Positions 1-39,331 of a stretch of DNA of 64,000 nucleotides are shown one piece after another. Numbering within the stretch: the stretch's first letter is position 1; each line of letters begins with the position of its first letter. The stretch is from Rhizodiscina lignyota (lineage: Eukaryota). The position numbers were made by a program, and so were the translations under genes. The notes under the pieces were generated by a model that saw only the letters and a list, made by a program, of their open reading frames with translations, was not told the origin of the DNA and searched no databases. The stretch lies in assembly GCA_010015805.1 (NCBI GenBank), contig ML978121.1:1426001-1490000 (forward strand), given 5' to 3'.

Positions 1-1217
1 CCCTCTGGTAAGCCTTCGCACTCCGAGTGGAGGCAGCGTCATCTTGGTTGTTGAATCCCTTCAACGGTCCAGCACTCCACGCCTGGGCTTGCGGCAAGAT
101 CAACACGGAATCCATTCGATAGCTTCAATCAAAAGTGTTAGCTGTTCAACAATCGAGGCACAGCTCCATTATCGTAATTTGCACACAAGATGCAGTCGAT
201 TGCTTCAGTCAAGGTAGCCAACGAAGAATATCATCTCTTGAAATATCTACCGGACACTTCTTGTCCTAAGCTCATGCGGCTACTAACTGCTCCTGGCCTC
301 TCCTCTTCCACTTTTTCAACGTTTTTAGAGGTGATGTGCTCTTGAACATATCCCCAACTCAATTTCAGAAGGATTATTTCACCCTTCTAGTCTTCTCTTT
401 CGCCCATATAATGTATTCCACTTACTTTGGATGACAAAGATGACAAGCATGCCGAGCTAACGCGAGCTATCTGCTTGGCAAGAGTTGACAGAGCAGATTT
501 GGAATCAGAATTTGATAGAGCCCTCGCTGGAGAATGAATCGAAACCAGAGAGAAATAGAAAGGATACTGAAAACAGATCAAGCTACATTACAACGAATAA
601 ACACGTGGCAGAGACGTTTGCGCCATTCAAGTTATGGGTAATTCTGATACGGCAAGAAACGGGCCCCTTGCGCATCTGTCAATGCGATATTAGCGACTCA
701 TCGCAAGCAGCAAGGGTTTCATGGTGCAGACTATCTCGCATGTCTTTTGCATTCCTCCTCTACGGTATTCAGGAGAGTTTAACAGTCCCTTTCACGCTAG
801 ATTCAACTCTCGGATTCCTTTCCGGGAGTCATTTCCGCCGCGGGCAATGACCGCCATTGTGTGGCTTGGGCCGGCAATTTGGCGCTCGAACTGAATTTAA
901 AAAAAGCCAAGCTTACAATGCCCATTATGAGACTCACCATCATCATAAAGGCGACTGTCGCAAAACAATTATGGGCGGCACCGAAAATTCGGGTAAATGC
1001 TTAGGAAGAAAGTTGCGGCCTTTAGTCACCAGTTTGGGGACAGGGCGGGTGAAGGGCCGCCTATGAGCACGGAGTGGCGAACCCGATGATGCACCTTTTT
1101 GATACAAAACAACCCACCATTCTTCTTCGCGGACAACTTTCCAAGCTACACCAACGCCAATTGATCGTGTTAACACTACAACGCACTTTCTACATCTTGA
1201 TCTTCGAACCACACGCC

Positions 1218-9187: not shown

Positions 9188-10698
9188 TCATCGATTGATT
9201 TTGGTGCGCTTCGAGGCACGACCACGTTTCATCACTGGAGAAGGACGCTTTGTCGGAGAAGGCATTTGACTATTATTTGAGTCGACACCATCGCTTAGCG
9301 CATGCAGAGAAGTCACACTTGATTCTGCACCCTCTTCACCCGAATTCCTTTCGCCCTCAACCTGGTCTGTGACGCTATTCGCCAATCCAATTGCCCCATC
9401 CCTTTGCTCCTTAGCCCAGTCTCGCAGGTTCCTGAACGCGGCTGCCCCGTTTCGGAAGGTCTCAATGTCCCCGTCCATTGCCCAAGAACCGATGAGGTGC
9501 GTGTAATACTCTTGTCGACCGTTTGGGCCATTCGTCCGAGCAGTGTAGATAGTATACATTGAAAGCTTATCTCCTTCGTAAATCGATGTGATGGTGTGCG
9601 CATTGTTGTCGAATTCTGGTTCGTTTGTCCCATACGAGCGAAGCTGGTGCTGACCTCTTTCGCCTAGTGCGCCGTCATAAACACACTGTCGTCGAACTAC
9701 CGCGCTAGTACCATCAGGACCCTTTGCGTGAAGAAAGAAGTTTGGTGCAATAGGTAGATCATCCTGCGTTGAAGGGATGATCATACCCTTGAGTCTATCC
9801 CGTATTCGGCGATCAAGCTGCTCGGGAAGTGCGCCGTCGTATAGGTCAGGATTACCCGGAGTGAGGGTATAATCACTAGTCAGACCAACTAGGCTTTGAA
9901 GGTTCCCAAATTTGATTTTACCACAAACGTATTTGGTTTCTCCGGAGCTGCCTTCAATGATAGAAACTATAGACTTTGTAGCTTGCTCCTCCTTTTTTGC
10001 ATTTGCAGTAGTTTCCTGAAATTTCTCAAACTCTTCATCTGTAAATCGAGACAGTGAAAGAGAAGGTCGACGTTGTTTTGCTCTTTCTCTAATCTCGTCC
10101 AAATTCTTCGGTTTCTCAGGCTTTCGACCATCTGAATATTTATAGAAGGCGGGAAACACCCCATGGTCTTTGAGTATTTGCTCAAAGTTACGAGAGTAGG
10201 GGCTTGTATTCCTGGTCTTTACTGTATTGGTAGTATCTTCGTTCTTCAAGACAGATGGCCGATTCGCAGCCGGCATCGTAGAGTGTTCAAGAGGATTGCT
10301 AGGTTCTGGATACTAGGACGACTCATTAGCATTCTCGTAAAACAAGGACATCTGGGGATGATTACTCCTCTCAGATCAGACGTGCCTGGACCACCCTGTC
10401 TAGCAAACCGCTTGACCTCTATCAAATCGTTCCTTGAATAACCGCTAAGTATCTCAGATGCAGACTGCTGTCCTTTAGCCCACTTAGCGAGAATGCTTCG
10501 TGTGAGAGGCCGGCGATTTTGTCGATACAGCGGAGGATGCTTGTTGGGCTTATTGTTTCTGCGGTTCAACTCTTTCAATGCGCATTTGGTAAGCCAGATC
10601 TTGGACAGGTTATCCCAATAACTTGATGGCGGCTGAGAGTCTGTATATTTGAGTTGGGGACGTTGCTCCGTGTGTTGGTGCATATGTGGATCAGACAT
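9188..10698 (-). CDS. Uncharacterised fungal protein with a putative PD-(D/E)xK-like nuclease fold (intron about 10365-10313)
   Basis: Two ORFs are joined by a GTAATC..GCTAAT..TAG intron. Motifs WDNLSKIWLT, KRFARQGGP..SDLRG, NPDLYDGA, PNFFLHAKGPDG...RQCVYDGALG.RG and FRNGAAAFRNLRDWA match a widespread ascomycete hypothetical family as recalled. The tail is basic and NLS-like. Confidence 0.8.
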
Positions 10699-11386
10699 TA
10701 TGATGAAGTGCTGCCAGGGTATAAGAGGACGGTATTTGGTAATATTTGACTCCTGTTTTTGCTTGCCATAGTCTAAGTCTAAGACACGGAGCTATGTAGA
10801 GAGACATTTTTGTTTGAGCGGATAGCGACACAAAGAACGCGCAAGACTGCATTAAAATTGCGGCACTGTGAAGGCGCAGACAAAGGGATGCTACCCCATG
10901 GGAGCTTGTTGAAATAGAGCGATAATAATAATACGGCTCGAAGACAAAGGATGTTTGGAATGTCTGCCAGCGATTAAACCTCCGTCCGCTATATGATGTT
11001 GTCGAGCTATCACGTGCATGCAGGTGAGTGACGACTATTAGAGAACTTGGCCCGGGAGCGTTCCTTATCACGACTAATCTGAACTAGGCAAGGCGTATGC
11101 CAAGAGGTATTCTTCCTGCGCTGAGACAAAGTCAGCGTGTGCGCAAAAACCCGGAAGCCGATTCTGCACGCTACTGCAACCCAGGGATTCGTGGACGCTA
11201 CTGTCGCGATTGGGAGGAGCGATTGAGGAAGCGCCCCGCTCCTTTGAACGACTTGAATGGTTGAGTTATTATCAAAATCTGCGTTGCGATAGTCAAGTAT
11301 GGAGCCATGCCTGGGCGGGACGCAAGGACCGCCGCGGATCCCCGTCAAGCCTACCCCATCGAATTCGAACCCCGAGTTGAGGGAGG

Positions 11387-26418: not shown

Positions 26419-27792
26419 GTATCCAGTAGTCATAAAAGTCAATACTTCGTCAGGTCATTGCTACGTTCCACTTCCGATCTCCGGCCGCCGAACGCAAGCA
26501 AATTCAGATATCCATGAAATTCGACGGCCACACATTCTTAATTCTGCAGCCGCCGCAACGTTTATGGCCGCATGCCTCGCAGCGCGGCCTGCCAAAGCAT
26601 GACGGCTCCCAAAAAGCCATCCCTCGTCTGCAGTTGCAGCACACTACCTTTCTGATTGACTTAGTTTTTGAGGGCATCTTGCAATATCAGTGAGATGGGC
26701 TTAATCTGTTGTGATTCGTTATTGCTGATCAGGTTCTGAGATAGCATTGAAGTGAGTATACGAAACCTCGGCGTATATGAAGCTACGCAACAGATCATGG
26801 TGAGAAGTTTCGTCAATGTGAGACAGAATCGCTTTGTTGCACTCCTTTGAGAACAAGACCAGGAGACATCAAAGAGCTCCTGAAGCATCATGACCCCCAT
26901 TGTGAGCCACACTAGCTCTTTGTTGATTGTTTCTAGTCGACATGAAGACCGATTATAGCTCTGCTTTGAATGTGATCCAAATTCGTTCAGTCACACTTGG
27001 AAAATGGGATGCTGACTTTACATCGGGGAAAAAACTGAGATATTTCGACACCCGGACAGCTACTTTCTATCCCCTCTCACGACCGCAATCTTGCCTTAAT
27101 AATTATAATACTAGTATAAAATGAACTATAAGGATTAGTCTATGTAAATCTCTACTTTATTTTAATAAGAAAATTAATATTCGTCGAGAAAACTGGCGAA
27201 CAATTGCTGATATCTGAGTGTCAATGGCGTGTCACTTTTTCGCCCGACGTAGGGGCTGAGTAGCTACTTCGTATTCACGGGGGCGGTCAAGGGTACCTAA
27301 ACCTGGGTACCCCGCCCCACTGGGGATTGGATTGGGGTTCCGCCCTTTAAGGGCAAAGCCCTCTTCAGAAGATCGCCACGAAGATCTTAACTACTGCTCT
27401 GTACAAATATATTCACCGTCAAATCCTCTTGATTCTAGTGTTGCCTATTGGCGTGTTCGTCTCCGCATTTTGGCCCTTGGGGTCCGTTTTCAGGCCGGAC
27501 CTCTCAGAAGACACCCGTCAGCCATAGGCCGTTTCCTTGCGCTAGTCCAAGCCTCGTTACTGAGGCGGTGACTCCTTCTTGACTCCCTTTTCTACAGGCA
27601 GCGTAGGTATAAGTCATTGTCTGTGTCGCGTGCTACCTTTCCCAGTGTCTTCATCGTCCAGTTACACATGCGACGCGGCGATAGAAGATTTCCTTTGAGG
27701 TCTCTCACGATATACAGAGTATCTTTCTGACTGTTTCAGCTATTGTCAACGTCCTTCACCCGCTTGTCGTTTCATTATTCCTCCCCGTCATA

Positions 27793-30700
27793 ATGCAAAT
27801 CAATTTCGATATACCACTCATACGAGATGGTAAAAGCAAAGACCTTGTCTCATATCTCAATGAACTTCGACAGAATCACTCGGATGTCGCCATTTGCCAA
27901 TCACTGTTTGAAGCTGTTGATCAAGAATATATCCCGCCAGATATCTTCAGCATATTTATTCCCTGGTCAAAGTCTTCCGATATCATTGCACTGTGCGTTC
28001 ACAATCAACAATCCCGTTTCGTTCGAAATCAAGGCATCAAGTTCTTCGGCAAGGTACTGGCGGATCCCGAACGGTGGGAGGCTGCGTGGTTGGCTTTAGG
28101 CGGATCTGAAGGACTCGTCAGTCTGTTCGCAGAACTCTCCGTCATAGATGTCAGGGCTCTGTCAACTGCAATTGGTTGCTGTAAACGTGCTCAGCATGAA
28201 GATGGAGTGCGAGAGGAAACCATCGAGGAGTTGCTGCGAGCACTTCTACCGACGCACTATCCCGGATCGAAATATGAAAGCCATGACAAACGTCCTATTC
28301 AGCACCACTATGCTCAAATGGCGCCTGCATGCTCGGACGAATTTATTGCCGAATTACTGGATGCCGAAGACGAGTCAAATCCGCTTTATCGACGACTCCC
28401 TGTGACACGCTTGATCAGGACTCACGGAGAGCTCTTACGAAGGCGGGTCATCGAAGGCATCTTTGGGGATGGAAATGAGGACAAGCAACTTCCTCAATTT
28501 CTAGCAGCGTTCGTATACAGCCAACCACCCAGACCTGGACCAGATCAGAAGGTGTCAGCATCCATGGCATTTGCAATGAGCGTCTTGCAGTCCCGACTCA
28601 AAGACATCGATAATGATAAATATTGGCCTGCGACGGTATCTGAAGCCGACATATTCTTCTCACTCTTTCGACGAAGTCTTAAAAAGAGATTGCCCGAGGC
28701 TAGAGTATACGACGTCATCAAACTCGGGCTGCAGATGGTGGAGGCTCAGCCAAAGCTGAAATCCAACTTTAAGTCCAAAGATATCTGGTCCAAGCTGATT
28801 GCACGTTGGAAGAGAACGCCAAAACTCTATGGAGACTTGATTTCGCTTGCTTTGCGTTTGGGACTGGGGGCAAAATCGGAGAAAACAATTTCAAGAGACT
28901 TCCTTCAAACTCTACAAGCTGCCAGCTTGAGGCCAGAATTGCGGTGGCCACTGCTTCGATTGTACTGTCTTCACGTCCCCAGGAAAGGTATCGACATAGA
29001 TAGCGCCGACGACTACACGACCCTTGGGGATCAGCAATGGTCTAGTGATCTCTTCTACCAGCTAAACACGAGTCAAGCACTTCGACTATTGAAAGGCCTT
29101 CAGGACGCGAATCCGGAATATCCATTTTTGGTTGGGTCTGGGGTTTTGGCCGATCAGAAGATCTCAACTTATCACAACTTCAATGCTGAACTCCTTGAAG
29201 TTATTCTCCGGCGCGGCTCCGAAGAGACACAAAGAAAGGCCGAGGCTGCCGTCGACGATCTCCGCAAGAAGTCCGCGACTGCAAGGGAACAATTGGACCG
29301 AGCCCGACTTGCGAAAGGTGCTTCTTCTTATGCTATCGCAAGCGGCAGTCTTGACCTTTACGCCGAGACAATCACTTGGCAGCAGCGATACGTTCGGGAT
29401 CCTCTTACTGTGAAAACCATATTTGCCCGGGATGCCGTCACCACTACAGAAGGGATCGAGCTTCTCTCCGGGATACCGAAACCGTTTTCGAGTTTGGCGG
29501 AAGTCGCATCAAGAGTGGAGAAGGCAAACAAGATCTTACTGACTCTGGAGGAGACAATGCGAATGGCGAAACGAGAGCCCTCCTTCCACCAGCCAGATTG
29601 GCAATTTATCAGCCAGTTATTTGGGGATGTCATCAGTCAACGCGTCGCTCGCGCCACCGATCTGCAGAAGCATCTGAAAGGTTCCGATGCGGACGTGTAT
29701 ACTGCAATATGGGGAGGAACCTTGGCCATGGTGGAGAAAGTAGGCGTTGACTTCCTAAATGCAGCTCGTGGCCCGATCAGAGACCTCTTCGAAACCCTCC
29801 CTCCAAAAGCTCTGGCTGCTACAACGAAGTCTATGCTCGAAGCTGGTAAGGAGAGGCGGAAGAAGCAAGACCGTGAGCCAGGAGATGATATTCTGGAGCA
29901 TCTGTCATACGATGTGCTGCTGCGGCTCGGTAAAAGCGACAAGCCCGAATTAGGGCAGCAGCTTGTTCTCCAGACAATCCTCGATCGACCAGATGCAAGC
30001 TCTTGGCATCGACAAATGTTGTCGGTGGCGTTTATGAAACGTCTCTCCGCCAAAGATGCCCAGGAACTACTTCTTGCATTTGCAGTTGGAATTAGTGAAA
30101 AGCTTGGGGAGCAATCGTTTGTCAGAGTGGGAGAAGCAGAACCAGCCAAATCAGCACCGCCCCAGTCGCTTGTTAAAGTCACTACGGTCAAATACCTAGC
30201 GCAACTCCTTGACAACGCCGAGTTCATCTCAGCAGACAACGCAGTGGAGGTACTAGTGGAACTGTTCAAGGCCGGGACGCACAGGGATATTCGTCTCGCC
30301 ACTCTCGACAGCCTGTTGAGCTTGCTGAACAGCATATGTAGCCGAGGGGACGAGGGTTGGAGATCTAACCCGTTGGTTGAGAAGATAATGGGAGCTCTGG
30401 AGACCGTCATCCCAGTTTTGGTATTTAGGGAGCGCCAACCAATGAGACCCCAGGACTGGGAAGAAGCTAAAGAGACGGGAACCGTGCCAGCTATTCCTGA
30501 CGTATCTCTTGACCTCCCTCCGTTGTTGAATGCTATGCTTACAGCAGCCGATGGACGCCAATACCCTGGTCTGAAAAACTTGCAAGCTGAGTTTGTGGCC
30601 CGGTTCTTCTTGCCCATTCTCGAGCTGTCCCAAGCAGAGCATATGAGATGGGTTGCATTGTTCCTCACTAAATACAATTACAAGGCGAGGTTCACTGTAA

Positions 30701-31821
30701 AGGACCTCCCTCGGACGCCAGTTAGGGTCCGGGTATGGGAGACTCTCGTACGGTCCTATCCCGATTTTGTTCCCCAGACTGTGTTTGAAGACTACAATGA
30801 GCATATCGTCATGACAATCGCACCACCTGCGGCACTTACAGACTTCAATAAGTCTCTCAGAGCGGATCCGAATCTCCGGAATACGGCTGAAGTCCGGCAT
30901 TGGCTCTTAATCTTTGGCCGAAGCATGAACCAGTACTCGTCCTCTGGAACTCAGACATTCGTGTCTATGGTCCATCATGGCTGGCCAACTCCTTCAATTC
31001 AGAATGGCATCTCCGCGGAGTGGTTGATGAGCGCAATCAACAGCCATGCATCACTCTTCCTCAACGATTATGAGAGGTACACGGGTGTCTGGAAACTCTT
31101 CACACGGGATTTACGTATGCCTTCCGAGAGTCCTGGCTCTATTCCCTCGATGGTGTCAGCATGGCAGAAAAGTGGCAGACTCTTGCTCGAGCAAATCACA
31201 TCGCTGGTAGTCCGTACAAGGATCAGGCATGCCGCAGAGAATAAGCGTACTCTTCTTCCCTCGGTTACGAAACTTCGTCTTTGGCTCCTGCCTTATCCTT
31301 GCTTCCCAGACATAACGGAAGCCGATTTTGTCAAGGCATTAGAGGAGCTTCTAGATACTCTTCTGAAAGGTGAAGCTAACGTCCTCCGTTGGCCCAACCT
31401 TGCCGAAGATGCCTTCACGATCTCTGAATTGCTCAACACGGATGAAGAACGACTACGGGTTGCGTCATACATTGGAGGACTCGAGGAGCCATCAGATAAG
31501 AGTATCTCGGAATCGTCTGCCCAGAAACCTTCGTCTGGAGGTTCCACAAGCGATCCAGAGTCGAGAACTACCAGTGATCAAAGGGAGTCAGCTTTGAACC
31601 TCATCCGAGTTGCGCTTGCGCTAAGGCTCATTGAAGAGGGACAGAACGGTTTGAAGAAGGATGCCAAGGGCGAATTAGTGGCGGAAAGCAAGGATCTTGT
31701 CCAACGCCTCCAGAAGAGGATTGTGCACTGGCAGAACGATGACGATGAGAGCATCCGAGAGCGGATCGCAGAGTGGAGAAAGCAAGAGAACGGGCTTTGG
31801 AAGACTTTGATGGGTAAATAA
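27793..31821 (+). CDS. Large (1342 aa) intronless uncharacterised, probably alpha-helical protein
   Basis: A 4-kb uninterrupted ORF with Leu/Ala/Glu-rich amphipathic composition. No catalytic motif, signal peptide or clear TM segment was recognised. Confidence 0.85.
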   Translation: MQINFDIPLIRDGKSKDLVSYLNELRQNHSDVAICQSLFEAVDQEYIPPDIFSIFIPWSKSSDIIALCVHNQQSRFVRNQGIKFFGKVLADPERWEAAWLALGGSEGLVSLFAELSVIDVRALSTAIGCCKRAQHEDGVREETIEELLRALLPTHYPGSKYESHDKRPIQHHYAQMAPACSDEFIAELLDAEDESNPLYRRLPVTRLIRTHGELLRRRVIEGIFGDGNEDKQLPQFLAAFVYSQPPRPGPDQKVSASMAFAMSVLQSRLKDIDNDKYWPATVSEADIFFSLFRRSLKKRLPEARVYDVIKLGLQMVEAQPKLKSNFKSKDIWSKLIARWKRTPKLYGDLISLALRLGLGAKSEKTISRDFLQTLQAASLRPELRWPLLRLYCLHVPRKGIDIDSADDYTTLGDQQWSSDLFYQLNTSQALRLLKGLQDANPEYPFLVGSGVLADQKISTYHNFNAELLEVILRRGSEETQRKAEAAVDDLRKKSATAREQLDRARLAKGASSYAIASGSLDLYAETITWQQRYVRDPLTVKTIFARDAVTTTEGIELLSGIPKPFSSLAEVASRVEKANKILLTLEETMRMAKREPSFHQPDWQFISQLFGDVISQRVARATDLQKHLKGSDADVYTAIWGGTLAMVEKVGVDFLNAARGPIRDLFETLPPKALAATTKSMLEAGKERRKKQDREPGDDILEHLSYDVLLRLGKSDKPELGQQLVLQTILDRPDASSWHRQMLSVAFMKRLSAKDAQELLLAFAVGISEKLGEQSFVRVGEAEPAKSAPPQSLVKVTTVKYLAQLLDNAEFISADNAVEVLVELFKAGTHRDIRLATLDSLLSLLNSICSRGDEGWRSNPLVEKIMGALETVIPVLVFRERQPMRPQDWEEAKETGTVPAIPDVSLDLPPLLNAMLTAADGRQYPGLKNLQAEFVARFFLPILELSQAEHMRWVALFLTKYNYKARFTVKDLPRTPVRVRVWETLVRSYPDFVPQTVFEDYNEHIVMTIAPPAALTDFNKSLRADPNLRNTAEVRHWLLIFGRSMNQYSSSGTQTFVSMVHHGWPTPSIQNGISAEWLMSAINSHASLFLNDYERYTGVWKLFTRDLRMPSESPGSIPSMVSAWQKSGRLLLEQITSLVVRTRIRHAAENKRTLLPSVTKLRLWLLPYPCFPDITEADFVKALEELLDTLLKGEANVLRWPNLAEDAFTISELLNTDEERLRVASYIGGLEEPSDKSISESSAQKPSSGGSTSDPESRTTSDQRESALNLIRVALALRLIEEGQNGLKKDAKGELVAESKDLVQRLQKRIVHWQNDDDESIRERIAEWRKQENGLWKTLMGK

Positions 31822-32435: not shown

Positions 32436-34975
32436 TTAGAAGAAAAAGGCTGCAGCAAACACGAGCGCCGTAAATGCCGTAGTTATACAGTATTCCACTT
32501 CAAACAGAGCTGTTTGCGGTTTAAAGGCAGTTTTCTTGGCATGTCTCGTCGGATGAGCGATGCCGGTCTTCGAATCTCGGTCCAGCAATGCTTCTCTATC
32601 AGGCATGCTTGGTGGATCAATCGCATATGTGACTGGAATCCAGAATGCGCTGCATGTCATGACCCAGGCCACGGGAGGCCAGAAGGCATGTGTTAGAAGA
32701 CATTCCAGCTGATCGCGCGTTGTAGGTTTATCCAGGAGGCAGTGAAGACTAGTCAGAGTAACGGCTGTGAGACAGAAGTAAACGTAGAGAACGTGGTAGC
32801 CGGCGAGGTAGTTGAGGACGATGATGCGGAGTCGGCGAAAGAGAGGAGCGCGGGCGGCAGGGTCGCGCTCATTGAGTTCGGACTTGAGTGAACCAGATGG
32901 CTTGAAAGCTTGAGTTTGGCCTCCGAGCCACCTCGGGAGTACGAAAGAGCGAACGATTGTGAGCGCGATATACGGGCTCATCCAGAGCTGTGCGCGACTT
33001 CCGCGCTGGCCGGTTGCATAGCCAGAGGGTATGAAGAGGACGACCTCGCAGATGCGGTTCATGATGAAAGCGGCGAAGCAGGAACGAATGAGCCAACGGA
33101 GTTGTTCGTCGTTTGCGTAAGCAACGAGTGCGTTTCCGGTGATGAGAACGATCGGCAGCGCGAAGAGGGAGAGGGTGAGGAATACGTTGAACAAGCTGAG
33201 GACGGCGTAGATGAAGCTAGACATTCGTTGATAGAAGGTCATCTGGCGGACAGCGTCTCCATAGAGACAGAACTTGAGTTTGAATGACGTGTCCACAGTG
33301 CCGATTGCCTGGCTCCAAGTTAGTGACAATCATGTAAAACTTGGCGGTAGGATTTACCCATCTCGTCCTCTGCTTCAAATGGCTTCCATAGCTGTCAGGA
33401 ACTGTTCCGAACTGCAGCGGCTCATGGATATATGCGGTTTTCCAACCCTTTCCCAGCATAAGTGTAGAAGTAGCGACATCCTCTGCGAGCGATCCTTTAG
33501 GAAACAAACCAATCTCCTCGAGCGCATCCCTGCGGAGTACATAACCACTACCCGTGCACCATGCAACACCTAATGCGTCTTTTATTGGTTCTGATACATG
33601 CACAAAGAAATCGAGGCTTTGGCAGAGTGGATCGCCTGGTGGAACGTTGTAGAAAAGCTGGGGCGGACATGCGAGAGCCACTTTAGGATCAGCAAGTAGA
33701 TGAGGGACGATTGCACGAAGCCAGCTCTGCTCAGGTATCATGTCCGCATCCAACGCAGCGACGTACTGAGAAGCTCCACCCGGCATATCAATGACCTCTT
33801 CGAGCCCATAGTTCAGGTTACCAGCCTTGAAGTGGTGCGGTACTCCGGGAATCTTCGTTCTGGCGCGATAATGCAAATTTGGATATATCTCAGTCAGCCC
33901 TTGGACGGACCTTTGCAGCTCTGCCGATTTTGCGTCGTCCAGAACAACGACCCGGAATTTGTTCAGCGGATAGTCCACATCACAGGAAGCTCGCACGGTG
34001 TCCAGAATCAGGTCCACCTCTTCTCCACAGCACGTGATAAAGACGTCGACGGTAGGGACGTCCTTACCCACAAGACGAAGCTTAGGGCGTTTCCTCTTTT
34101 TCAGAGAAAATATCGTGAAGAACGACTGCAGGAAGATAGGAATGGCCACGGAGATTTCAACGACGATAAAAACCCACGCGAGTGGAAACCAGCGGTGCTG
34201 TTGTCTCTGTGCCGAAAGGACGAAGAGTATCCTTAGGGTGAAATAGAGCCAGTACAAGCCCAGAGTGAGGATGGCCAGGATCGGAGCGCTGAAGTAGAGG
34301 TATCGCTTCCAGTTCGAGAGCTGGCCGACGTCGTCTCGGCTATGGACTTTCGCAATAAGACCTTCTTTAACCCAATCTTTGTCGAATATTTGGGATGGCG
34401 ATGCCGGAAACAATGGTTTGTTTATTTCAGAGCTCTGGTTCAAATTAGTGTGAGCTTTGCGAGGGTCTTAATGTAGTTCATACCAGAGGTGTTGGAGTGT
34501 TGGAAGAAGCATATGATAAATGTTGATACGGTTGACCGTGAGAGAGCCATGAGGGATGTGGGCTAGTAAATGGTGTGCCCGGCGGACTCTCAGCATACAA
34601 ATCAAGTGATGAGTGTCCTGGTCGAAAAACAGGACGCGTGGCCACGGGCTCGGCTGTGTAAAAGGAGCTTCGTCGCCGCGCGAACGGTTGTATCTCGTCT
34701 ACTTGTTCGTCGCTCTTGTTCTTCCTGTCTTCCACCAGTCTTGCCGATTCCATGGAAGAATGTCCATTCAGCGGCCACACCTCCCTCTCGGCCTCTGTTC
34801 GCATCGGGGAGATGGGCACAAGCTGCTCATACTTCTCTTTTGTCTCATGACTAGAGTTGTCGTCGTTCGCGGTATGTAGGGAAGGGGTGAGCGATCTTTG
34901 GTACGCCGATGGTGGTCTGGTAAGAGTCGGATGCAGCGCTTCGTAGTCGTCAACGATAGGGCGAATCGTTGACAT
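32436..34975 (-). CDS. Cellulose-synthase-like processive GT2 beta-glucan synthase (CelA/Tft1-like), 3 exons
   Basis: Two N-terminal TM helices, then DVFITCCGEE, LDD, HHFKAGNLNYGL, DAD, PQLFYN, CTGSGYVLRR, LAEDV and QRTRW (D,D,D,QxxRW), followed by several TM helices. No PilZ domain. Confidence 0.93.
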
Positions 34976-35507
34976 TGCGCTTGGCCGGCAAACACTTATA
35001 ACAAAACGAAAGTAGTACGAGATACCTCAGTATCTCAGTGATGTGTTGGAACGAGTGACAAAGTAGCGAATGAAGAGTCGAGAATAGGATTGCACCAGTG
35101 AAACAAAAGGGAAGAAGGAAAGCTTGCAAGTTTGACAGGTAGGACAAGCTATCAGCGGGACATCCCTCCGGAGCAGCGAAAACACGGCACGGTGTAGTGG
35201 CTGGCGCGTCGCGCACGTTATCCGCAGTGTTGAATCAGGTTGGTGAACGTATCAAACTTGGTGGCTGCGGGCCCACAAAATTCAAGGAGTGATGTTGATA
35301 AGAACAACACCAAGCCGATAAACGCACTGAGACCTGATCATCCTGGAAATACAATATATCGGACGGAAGATCCCACACTGCTTAATTCAGGTCAACGCCC
35401 TCCTTACCTACCTACTTTGCTCTGATGATCTTCGCTCTTCTATATCTCTCCTGAGGGTTCTGGCCTCGAAGACACTCCATCACAGGACAGGCCCTCCGGC
35501 AACAAAA

Positions 35508-36943
35508 ATGTTCTTCCTCGCTCTTCTCAGTGGCTCTCTCTTCATCCTACCAGTTGCTGTTACTATCGGCGTCTTCCTCGGTGTCGAGCGACAGCGCATC
35601 TTCAGCGGGGACGCCAGCACTGGCGGCGGCGGAGGAGGAGGAGGCATCTTCGGGTTGGGAAGACCGAAAGTCACCACAGATACGTACTGCCAGAAGTCGT
35701 ACGGCATAACGCCCTTTCCCGGGCGGTACATCTGTACGTCTCAGTTCCCCTGCAGTAGCTCCGACGCAGCGGTTGCGTTGGCAGAAGCATGAGGCGTCGT
35801 CTTGATTTGTGCCATCGGCGTTATTAACCTCCTTGAACCCCGTCACGCTAACCATATACAGTTAACCCAAATCAGTTACGTCGATGTCCCTGCTCGAATC
35901 AACTTTAGGTTCGCTGCCGCGAAAGCCCTGTTTCTAACGATTGACGCAGATGGGGTGATGAGCAAGATTTGGGCGACCTGTGCCTGAACGTGAGTGTCCG
36001 CCACTTTCTCTTCAGCTTTCGTCATCGTGGCTGACGACGCCTCGTTGCACCTTGCCACTTTTGCGCTCGGTCGCGCTTTGATCACGTCCCCAATTTTAAC
36101 GTCTCCGTCGTTTCCGTCGTTTCCATGTGATTCCTTGTTTCAGACAGCTGTTGTGTGACTGCGCTTGCTGAAAACTCCTGCAGATAACAACAAGCACAGC
36201 AACGAAGAGCAGCGAAGTGTACGCTGCAGGATGGTCAGTGACAGTAAGTGTCTCCTTGCTATTCAAGTTGTCGTGATTAACCCCTTTTACAGTGGCAGTA
36301 TCCGCCTGGGTCGGCGGACGAGCCTGTGCATGCTTTTCCAAACGCCAAACTTGAATTGAACGACACAATTCCGGCGCAGCTATCCGACATTAAATCCCTT
36401 TTCCTCGATGTGACGTGGACATATGGACTTGGCAACTATATTCACAACGAGACGAATAGCACTAATCTGGAAGCCGCCGGCGTTAATGCAAACGTCGCGG
36501 TCGATATGTTCTTTGCAAAAGATAAAACCAACTCCACAAGTACCACCGATTCCGATTACGAAGTAATGGTTTGGTTGGGACGCTGGGGAGCAGCCGTGGA
36601 CCCTATCGGCCTTGCGAGCGGAATTAAAGCTAACCACAGCATCAACGGTACTCATTTGTATGTTGCACAATCCAGATCATACGACAGTGCTAATTCCTTT
36701 CGAAGCTCTTTGTACTATGGTGACAACCAGAACACTGGCCAGACGGTATTCACATGGGTAGCGGATCAGAATACGACTTCCTTCACAGGGGATTTGACGC
36801 CGCTCGTGTCAAAACTAGAAGAGAATGCTGGGCCAGATGGGAAAAGTTATCTTGGATATGCTGCATTCGGCTCCGAAGCACTGTACTCCTTTGAGAACGT
36901 CACCTTTTTTGTGCCACGTCTGGAGATGGATGTCCAGGCATAG
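35508..36943 (+). CDS. GH12 endo-beta-glucanase with an N-terminal hydrophobic anchor (6 exons, including a 13-nt microexon at 35862-35874)
   Basis: Spliced translation MFFLALLSGSLFILPVAVTIGVFLGVE...GGGGGGGG...YCQKSYG...YI/FNPNQ/WG..LCLN/...WSVT/WQYP...VHAFPNA...ANVAVDMF...DYEVMVWLGRWG..DPIG...YLGYAAFGSEAL. Both GH12 catalytic Glu residues (YEVMVW, GSE) are present. Confidence 0.88.
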
Positions 36944-37843: not shown

Positions 37844-39331
37844 ATGCCGGAGGCTACCGACGCTGCTCTGCAGCATACAGCCAGCATTGAGGATGCATCT
37901 GCTCCTTCTGGCAACGACCAGGCGTTGAACGATGCTGAAGAAGAACAGCGCGTTCTGCTGGCTGCCATCGACTCCTTTCAGTAGGTGCTAGATCAATACA
38001 ATTCTTTGCCGCAAATCCATTGGGTGTTCATCGTCCGCGAAATCTCCTAAAGTAGACGTCTTGCTGCATGTAATGATCTCTAAGCTCCCACGGCAATTCC
38101 AATGCTGATGCCCTCTCCTCATCATAACGCTTACTTCTCCCGCAGATCCTATCGCACAGCTGCTCATTACAATGTCACTCATCTCCGTCGTCAATCTTTC
38201 TATGCTTTGCCTCAGGCTCACTGGACTCTTCTGGCCGAGCCTCCTTTCTCAATCCTCGATACGTTCAACGAGGTAGACGACGCGATTGATGCAAACGCGG
38301 ACATTGCCGAAGCAATTGCGAACGCCGCATTACCACCATTCGGAATCGCTCTGGAAGAAGACGGAGAAGCATCCCATGAAGGAAACTCCAATAATAATGA
38401 GGTTCCCTGGAGAGGCCAAGCCACCCCCTCAGACCGGGATAAGGCGCGAAGCACTCTCCGTCAAATCTACAGAGACTGGAGCGCAGAAGGTGCAGCAGAA
38501 CGTGATGCCTGCTATGGGCCAATTCTACAAGCCCTTCAATCCGAATTCTCCTCGACACCGGATCGAGAGAAGGGTAATATCAGTGTACTCGTCCCTGGAG
38601 CCGGTCTTGGTCGCCTTGTGTTCGAAGTGTGCCGTGCGGGATTCGCAGCTGAAGGGAATGAGATATCCTTTCATCAACTCCTGACCAGCTCGTACATTCT
38701 GAACCATAGTAGCCGCGCGGATCAATTCGCTCTGTACCCCTTCGCGCTCTCGTTCTCAAACCACGTCAGCCGCTCTAACCAGCTCCGCAAAGTCCTCATT
38801 CCAGACGTCCATCCGGCCACGGCTCTCGAGGAAGCTTCAGCTGGAATGGATATTCACGCTTTCGAGAGACTAGGCATGGCTGCGGCAGACTTCTGCGTGG
38901 CGTATAAGGAACCCCATAGCAAGGATAAGTATGATGCAATCGCTACCGCCTTCTTCATTGACACTGCGCCAAACTTGATTGCATATATCGAAGCCATACA
39001 AAACTGCCTCAAGTCTGGTGGTATATGGGTTAATGTCGGCCCATTGCTCTGGCACTTTGAGAACAACCCGCCTGGGAAGCCTGAGCAGGGAAGCCGACAG
39101 CCTTCGGCATCTGACCCGCGGGACGCCACGTTCGGCAACCAGTCTCTCGGGATCGGAGAGGCAGGGTCTGTCGAACTGTCGGAAGAGGAAGTCGTGCACC
39201 TCGTTCAGCACTTTGGATTCACGATGGAGAAGCATGAATGGGGCGTGCATTCCACAGGCTACATTCAGGACCCGAGAAGCATGTTGCAAAACGTCTATAA
39301 GCCCTCATTCTGGATTGCGAGGAAAAGGTAG
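37844..39331 (+). CDS. Carnosine N-methyltransferase / N2227-like SAM-dependent methyltransferase
   Basis: EEQRVLLAAIDSF/..Y...AHYNVTHLRRQSFYALP...KARSTLRQIYRDWSAEG...VLVPGAGLGRL...EGNEISFHQL...FFIDTA...GGIWVNVGPLLWHFE. Confidence 0.92.

Follow-up and report, generated by a model that had tools for sequence, protein, structure and literature searches.

Two divergently transcribed genes of the fungus Rhizodiscina lignyota (Dothideomycetes, order Aulographales) appear to form a conserved module in which a cell wall glucan synthase is accompanied by a membrane-tethered endoglucanase. The genes lie in a 64,000-nucleotide stretch of contig ML978121.1 (assembly GCA_010015805.1, positions 1,426,001 to 1,490,000), referred to here as the window; all coordinates are numbered from its first nucleotide. 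The minus-strand gene (32436 to 34975) encodes an 813-residue glycosyltransferase family 2 (GT2) protein, assigned to the TFT1/CelA type of processive β-glucan synthase from its spliced translation, its Pfam matches, and its identity to the Aspergillus fumigatus protein P0093. The plus-strand gene (35508 to 36943) encodes a glycoside hydrolase family 12 (GH12) protein, 313 residues long in our corrected model. Both proteins are present in the public collection under R. lignyota (P0063 and P0001, respectively). The pairing goes far beyond what chance would give, and we regard it as almost certainly a real, conserved two-gene module of filamentous ascomycetes. Our best explanation of the module as a whole, a Tft1/CelA-type synthase with a tethered GH12 that acts on the nascent glucan, is a probable one.

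The start codons of the two genes, at 34975 on the minus strand and 35508 on the plus strand, are separated by a divergent intergenic region of 532 bp (34976 to 35507), presumably a shared bidirectional promoter. A preliminary description of this DNA had put the gap at about 530 bp and had proposed that the genes are a synthase/hydrolase pair. The spacing was correct, and the proposal is strongly supported by synteny in three classes, variable flanks, matching gene trees, and a conserved membrane anchor. Adjacency in named genomes was judged from consecutive accessions or locus tags among the matches listed in four protein searches; such identifiers give no orientation. By this measure GT2 and GH12 are neighbors in 26 named species, comprising 5 Dothideomycetes, 8 Eurotiomycetes, and 13 Sordariomycetes (apart from that of Rhizodiscina, the class labels are ones that we presume). 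The Dothideomycetes are Meristemomyces frigidus (LTR85_007654/53), Aulographum hederae (KAF1990738/37), Lineolata rhizophorae (KAF2459008/07), Venturia inaequalis (EG328_003684/85, plus two more strains), and V. effusa (QDS67697/96). Among the Eurotiomycetes, the pair was found in Rhinocladiella mackenziei, Exophiala oligosperma, E. viscosa, Cladophialophora psammophila, Thermomyces dupontii, Penicillium chermesinum, P. atrosanguineum, and P. taxi. The Sordariomycetes comprise Metarhizium anisopliae, M. acridum, Ophiocordyceps sinensis, Conoideocrella luteorostrata, Hirsutella minnesotensis, Stylonectria norvegica, Cylindrodendrum hubeiense, Fusarium zealandicum, Trichoderma asperellum, T. viride, Niveomyces insectorum, Sodiomyces alcalophilus, and Phialemonium thermophilum. 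Identifiers two to three apart were seen in two further species, Trichodelitschia bisporula and Trichoderma asperelloides, and a GH12 of the same subfamily is present in Leotiomycetes.

Orientation could be read from metagenome contigs. A scan with the GH12 alignment gave 19 loci, nine of which extend at least 1.8 kb upstream of the GH12 gene, the other ten being too short to tell. The earlier suggestion of an adjacent, divergent GH12 held here too: in eight of the nine informative loci (L001, L002, L004, L007, L011, L013, L014, and L015), tblastn placed a GT2 gene head-to-head with the GH12 gene, and in those with an aligned GH12 start (L001, L002, L004, L007, and L013 to L015) the first aligned GT2 residue lies 0.8 to 1.3 kb from it. 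The eight paired loci represent four sequence groups: one Cenococcum-like, two Chaetothyriales-like, and one unplaced. In the ninth locus, L018, there is no GT2 gene within 10 kb upstream of the GH12 relative (9300 to 10700), and this relative begins with a short classical signal peptide, not an anchor, which we count in favor of a link between anchor and pairing. When the 15- to 56-kb part of the window was compared with all 19 loci by way of its 207 open reading frames (ORFs) of 80 aa or more, only those overlapping the GT2 or GH12 gene gave matches; the conserved unit is therefore the pair, not a larger block.

The two genes also appear to share a history. Quick maximum-likelihood trees were built from 26 GT2 proteins and from 25 GH12 partners. 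In both trees the Dothideomycetes form one side of a branch (support 99), and in both the Eurotiomycetes are split: the Eurotiales (Penicillium, Thermomyces, and Aspergillus, across the two trees) fall on the Sordariomycete side, with the Chaetothyriales apart, on branches with support of 100 and 96. Because both genes depart alike from the species tree, the pattern fits inheritance or movement of the pair as a unit. The odd split may reflect either a transfer of the pair between classes or an old duplication.

Two incidental records touch on the pair. In UniRef, a GT2 and a GH12 of the paired type (P0174 and P0189) are filed under the firefly Photinus pyralis, the GH12 being named "GH16 domain-containing"; it falls in a 90%-identity cluster with Metarhizium proteins and probably reflects fungal contamination of insect data. 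Should the data set be a transcriptome, it would show joint expression of the two genes. In Epichloe festucae, two adjacent gene models are upregulated in choke stroma according to Table 6 of PMC6921078: EfM3.080040, a GT2 (log2 fold change, 5.0), and EfM3.080050, labeled GH16 (log2 fold change, 3.7). These may be the same pair, and we treat them as a lead only.

The GT2 gene has three exons (34975-34484, 34434-33358, and 33308-32436, minus strand) separated by two 49-nt GT..AG introns; joined and translated, they reproduce P0063 letter for letter over all 813 aa. The preliminary description had reported an intact D,D,D,QxxRW set, and the spliced protein confirms it. The catalytic motifs, spanning 33358 to 33945 on the minus strand, are VLDDA (aa 328-332; 33931-33945), LDADM (aa 392-396; 33739-33753), WCTGSG (aa 456-461; 33544-33561), LAEDV (aa 480-484; 33475-33489), and QRTRW (aa 519-523; 33358-33372), so that the set is complete as DD, DxD, AED, and QRTRW, matching the pattern D, DxD, (T/A)ED, QxxRW. 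Across an alignment of 26 GT2 sequences (A2), the DD of VLDDA, the D, A, D, and M of LDADM, and the whole of WCTGSG, LAEDV, and QRTRW are invariant. Pfam gave GT2-type and Cellulose_synt matches above the cut-offs. The nearest solved structures are those of bacterial BcsA (4hg6 and 7lby; E of ∼3e-24), followed by plant CesA and barley CslF6. A crude hydropathy scan found six hydrophobic segments, two of them ahead of the glycosyltransferase domain and four behind it; Tft1 of A. fumigatus is predicted to have seven membrane passes (PMC4344333; the articles and the preprint cited in this report were available in part, and statements drawn from them refer to the accessible text).

In our tree the window GT2 is placed within the fungal clade, and over 713 aa it shares 61% identity with P0093 (738 aa) from A. 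fumigatus. We take P0093 to be Tft1 because A. fumigatus has a single protein homologous to the plant CSLF/CSLH enzymes, namely Tft1 (PMC4344333); accession XP_748682 is not among the 15 listed members of the cluster. Tft1 (XP_748682/Afu3g03620) is required for the β-1,3;1,4-glucan of the A. fumigatus wall (PMC4344333), and AfTFT1 alone gives rise to mixed-linkage glucan in Komagataella, in a study that also describes a fungal AfTFT1-like lineage (preprint 10.64898/2026.09.17.752320). As part of the explanation that we favor, the window GT2 is probably the orthologue of Aspergillus Tft1/CelA, and its product would then be mixed-linkage glucan. Another candidate for the same synthase, ZtGT2 of Zymoseptoria, was rejected: in the accessible text of PMC5653360 it is connected with Cps1 of Cryptococcus, and Tft1 goes unmentioned.

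The product has been demonstrated for the A. fumigatus enzyme only, and the GT2 of the present lineage might instead make another polymer, such as a cellulose-like material or an acidic glycan, to which the GH12 would be tuned. Against this stand the 61% identity to the A. fumigatus enzyme and the invariance of the catalytic motifs. Nor did we find a UDP-glucose dehydrogenase domain, or any conserved third gene, either in the 20- to 48-kb part of the window (ORFs down to 75 aa) or in the flanking DNA of L001, L004, L011, and L013 (ORFs down to 130 aa), although short exons could escape either search. We consider a different polymer quite improbable.

The GH12 assignment rests on both domain and motif evidence. 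Pfam PF01670 matched P0001 with 70.7 bits (cut-off, 27), and the last-exon ORF alone scored 54.2 bits. The motif YEVMVW (aa 202-207; 36557 to 36574, plus strand), which holds the predicted nucleophile Glu203, aligns with YELMIW of the solved GH12 structure 5gm3, and FGSE (aa 289-292; 36866 to 36877, plus strand), which ends in the predicted acid/base Glu292, aligns with FGTE of the same structure; we take these catalytic roles from what is generally held of GH12 enzymes. Both glutamates, said earlier to be kept, are indeed invariant in an alignment of 12 GH12 sequences (A1) and in a further alignment of GH12 proteins (A3). A subfamily set of 158 matches was assembled, of which 112 are full length (starting with M, at least 290 aa), and 111 of these carry the nucleophile motif E[VILA]M[VIL]W. 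The GH12 domain starts near the first conserved cysteine (YCQK, aa 60-63). An extracellular location of the catalytic domain is suggested by the nine N-glycosylation sequons (N-x-S/T) of the ectodomain and by its two cysteines, which do not vary in A1 or A3.

For the fold, the AlphaFold model of the Aulographum orthologue P0006, which is 59% identical to P0001, stood in for the window protein. It has a predicted local distance difference test (pLDDT) score of 84.8 and consists of a helix (residues 2 to 32), a disordered region (34 to 50), and a β-sandwich (53 to 312). Foldseek matched it to 1oa2, 4npr, 4h7m, and 5gm4 with TM-scores, normalized by target, of 0.83 to 0.86 and E of ∼1e-17, at 22 to 28% identity to fungal and oomycete GH12 structures. 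One solved GH12, 7ee2, is titled a β-1,3-1,4-glucanase, and we counted it for the mixed-linkage reading. GH12 enzymes retain configuration. Within the same probable explanation, the plus-strand gene would encode a retaining GH12 endo-β-glucanase.

The N terminus sets this protein apart. The preliminary description had pointed to a long hydrophobic stretch and a poly-Gly spacer, and both are as described. Residues 2 to 26 (35511 to 35585, plus strand) are 25 uncharged residues followed by ERQR, with a Kyte-Doolittle 19-residue mean (KD19) of 2.32, and we read this segment, which includes P15, T19, G21, and G25, as a type II signal anchor that stays uncleaved. Behind it lies a flexible linker rich in glycine (aa 27-59; 35586 to 35684, plus strand) with eight consecutive glycines (aa 39-46; 35622-35645); the linker region has a pLDDT below 50 in the P0006 model. 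These features hold across the subfamily. P15 is invariant in A1 and A3, and T19, G21, and G25 are at least 90% conserved in A3. The pattern P-x3-[TS]-x-[GAS]-x3-[GAS] occurs in 106 of the 112 full-length proteins (74 in the strict form P-x3-T-x-G-x3-G), and 106 likewise begin with a segment that is hydrophobic at KD19 of at least 1.6. The median uncharged run in the set is 25 residues; the six exceptions by hydrophobicity look mostly like mis-modelled N termini. The linker to the first conserved cysteine has a median length of 35 aa (range, 24 to 69; n = 103). A conserved proline, threonine, and G-x3-G would be unexpected in a segment that is discarded, which suggests that the helix is retained and packs against another helix. 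Taken with the rest of the explanation, these features make it probable that the GH12 is tethered at the outer face of the membrane by its uncleaved N-terminal helix, in type II topology.

The same observations bear on a simpler account, in which the segment is a cleaved signal peptide and the protein a conventional secreted GH12 with plant xyloglucan or cellulose as its substrate. Many members are automatically named "xyloglucan-specific endo-beta-1,4-glucanase," and the fold matches that of secreted fungal GH12 enzymes. The segment is long, however, its sequence is conserved across classes with P15 invariant, and the solved secreted GH12s, with chains of 216 to 243 aa, lack the low-complexity linker of 24 to 69 aa that follows it here. 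The pair also occurs in Metarhizium and Ophiocordyceps, Exophiala and Cladophialophora, and Meristemomyces, which we take to be insect pathogens, black yeasts, and a rock-inhabiting fungus, respectively. Secretion of an ordinary plant wall enzyme is, in our view, highly improbable.

The anchored proteins stand apart within GH12: among the 120 listed of 139 matches to the subfamily profile, scores are above 300 bits across classes, whereas no solved GH12 scores better than 89 bits. The clusters are ascomycete in a protein atlas. An exhaustive profile search returned 864 representatives at E of ≤0.001, 115 of them at ≤1e-30, and 46 of 150 listed, picked as the longer ones, were inspected. Thirteen carry the N-terminal anchor or a variant of it; 24 (within P0375-P0474) combine a signal peptide with a hydrophobic tail at the C terminus that follows small residues and resembles a glycosylphosphatidylinositol (GPI) signal. 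A GH12 tree had been proposed earlier as a way to find an anchored subclade linked to the GT2. In a quick tree of 50 rows, the 24 GPI-like proteins and six of seven others form a group of 30 with support of 91, and the 19 N-anchored proteins lie outside it, with one long-branch exception, in a tree that is unrooted and contains no canonical secreted GH12. We conclude that the association of the conserved anchor with the GT2-linked GH12 subfamily is strongly supported at the level of sequence. As a side observation, this entire branch within GH12 may consist of cell surface enzymes rather than secreted plant wall enzymes. A 4.3-kb contig, L017, carries two further GH12 relatives tail-to-tail (65-715, plus strand, and 4170-3554, minus strand); they are 30 to 54% identical to P0003 over the aligned segments, and their N termini are cut by the contig ends.

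The GPI-like relatives raise another possibility, that the linkage is kept for regulation only. A shared bidirectional promoter might, for example, serve both genes during wall growth, and the GH12 would remodel other wall β-glucans or the cell surface. Its nearest relatives are unpaired and have a signal peptide with a GPI-like tail (the 24 of 46 above; L018 has a signal peptide), as would fit a surface-remodeling branch, and Tft1 works alone in yeast. Yet just these two genes stay together across three classes while their flanks change, their trees show the same unusual split, and the N-terminal anchor type goes with the GT2-linked proteins. On balance we think a purely regulatory linkage unlikely.

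If, as we favor, the GH12 acts on the GT2 product, the pair might work as follows. The shared region of ∼530 bp would drive divergent transcription of both genes and so might co-regulate them. The multipass, BcsA-like GT2 would polymerize UDP-glucose to β-1,3;1,4-glucan and extrude the product through the plasma membrane, where the GH12, held outside by its helix and a linker of ∼35 residues, would meet the chain as it emerges. One outcome would be cleavage of the glucan by the tethered enzyme, which would fix chain length or release the chain; the other would be transglycosylation, in which the enzyme would pass the chain to a different wall glucan. Both are conceivable because GH12 enzymes retain configuration. 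That the GH12 acts on this product at all seems to us fairly likely; both its substrate and any contact with the synthase are predictions. We would put forward only tentatively, as a possibility that we doubt, a stronger version in which the helix, through P-x3-T-x-G-x3-G, docks on the synthase to give a fixed holoenzyme that gauges and cuts the chain and grafts it onto wall β-1,3-glucan, the partner having been lost secondarily in Aspergillus. On that equally tentative footing, the complex could be a fungal counterpart of CesA-KORRIGAN, of independent origin and with a third glucanase family.

Several observations weigh against a tethered GH12 acting on the nascent glucan. Many subfamily members carry positive charges on both sides of the helix. 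The P0006 model is equally near to endoglucanases, xyloglucanases, and the β-1,3-1,4-glucanase 7ee2, so that similarity does not reveal the substrate. The GT2 and GH12 genes of Cordyceps sp. RAO-2017 are on separate short contigs (7,046 and 15,043 bases). No Aspergillus protein is found among the 120 listed of the 139 GH12 subfamily matches, although Penicillium, Talaromyces, and Thermomyces are present; this suggests loss of the partner in Aspergillus, so that the best-studied species seem to manage without it. In A. nidulans, celA (AN8444) is adjoined by ANIA_08443, a DUF3431 protein with a transmembrane region, which is ∼429-fold upregulated in a celA deletion (PMC5519750). AN8445 is a peptidase (PMC8780418), and its place beside celA is surmised from gene numbering only. 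Finally, because AfTFT1 alone yields mixed-linkage glucan in Komagataella, in the accessible text of the preprint, the GH12 is not needed for polymerization. Given the yeast result and the Aspergillus loci, we regard the GH12 as an accessory that may shape or place the polymer rather than one essential for its synthesis.

Full-text searches and term searches within individual papers, supplementary files and subscription journals aside, turned up no description of a GH12 beside or working with this synthase. GH12 and endoglucanase are not mentioned in the main texts of the Tft1 paper (PMC4344333), the celA paper (PMC5519750), or the 2026 preprint; the main text of the last (10.64898/2026.09.17.752320) contains none of the words "GH12," "hydrolase," and "endoglucanase." In the accessible part of a review of cell wall proteins, GH12 and CelA come together only as families missing in Cryptococcus (PMC5872309).

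The GH12 gene required a change to the public model. Our model has six exons (35508-35733, 35862-35874, 35950-35989, 36184-36243, 36293-36657, and 36706-36943, plus strand) from the ATG at 35508 to the stop codon at 36941-36943, with an open frame and GT..AG boundaries at all introns. The resulting 313-aa protein is identical to P0001 (306 aa) except for seven additional residues, YIFNPNQ. The second exon is a micro-exon of 13 nt, TTAACCCAAATCA (35862 to 35874, plus strand), preceded by AG and followed by GTTACG; together with one base of each flanking exon it encodes FNPNQ, restoring the missing stretch. Where P0001 joins PGR straight to WGD, 11 of the 12 A1 sequences carry extra residues ahead of the conserved W-G, which read NPNQW in nine sequences and are variants in two, and P0001 alone is without them. 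L001, the closest metagenome relative, has a homologous micro-exon of 14 nt, and L004, L005, L012, and L013 have an acceptor at its place and no second intron. Since relatives show it, we judge the micro-exon to be real, and the public model to skip part of the predicted first conserved strand.

Among the neighboring genes, an uninterrupted open frame of 1378 aa lies past the 3′ end of the GT2 gene (27685-31821, plus strand) and has no Pfam match at E of ≤0.001. Downstream of the GH12 gene is a carnosine N-methyltransferase-like gene (38084-39331, plus strand; PF07942, 305.6 bits), which is not kept beside the pair in the metagenome loci. We saw no DUF3431 gene in the window from 18 to 52 kb.

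Mixed-linkage glucan is a polymer of the fungal wall, and its synthase was confirmed biochemically only in 2026. We know of no account of what governs the size of its chains, their release, or their attachment in the wall; a tethered glucanase beside the synthase in Dothideomycetes, Eurotiomycetes, and Sordariomycetes is a concrete candidate for that step. The two model species used for work on the synthase seem to be without the partner, which may be why the pair went unnoticed. If our explanation is correct, a GH12 subfamily that is automatically named as xyloglucanase would become a fungal wall enzyme, and processive β-glucan synthases with an endoglucanase of their own would have arisen in a third independent case, after those with GH8 in bacteria and GH9 in plants.

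Among the closest known systems is Tft1/CelA itself: its GT2 lineage is that of the window enzyme (61% identity over 713 aa), and the two agree in motifs and in their multipass membrane architecture. The neighbors differ: A. nidulans celA stands beside a DUF3431 protein and, judging by gene numbers, a peptidase, whereas the neighbor in the window and in the 26 other named species is a GH12. Secreted GH12 enzymes (Trichoderma Cel12A, Aspergillus XEG, Phytophthora XEG1, and 7ee2) have the fold and both catalytic glutamates in common with the window subfamily, which adds the conserved N-terminal helix, the linker, and an insertion of ∼15 to 20 residues after the WTYG strand. In bacteria, BcsA and BcsZ likewise combine a processive GT2 β-glucan synthase with a genetically linked endo-β-glucanase located beyond the membrane, and BcsA is the closest solved relative of the window GT2; but BcsZ belongs to GH8 rather than GH12, the bacterial genes form an operon rather than a divergent eukaryotic pair, and the window glucanase is predicted to be tethered by a helix of its own. 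In plants, the N-terminally anchored endoglucanase KORRIGAN accompanies CesA, a GT2 glucan synthase, at the plasma membrane. It differs from the window type in belonging to GH9 rather than GH12, in having a long cytosolic tail rather than a predicted one of one to six residues, and in being encoded by a gene unlinked to that of the synthase, in contrast to the adjacent genes seen here. As a GH12, and not a GH8 or GH9, the window glucanase makes the pair an analogue of the BcsA/BcsZ and CesA/KORRIGAN systems, not a member of either. A synthase with a dedicated endoglucanase is thus known in bacteria and plants; what is new here is a fungal case with a GH12.

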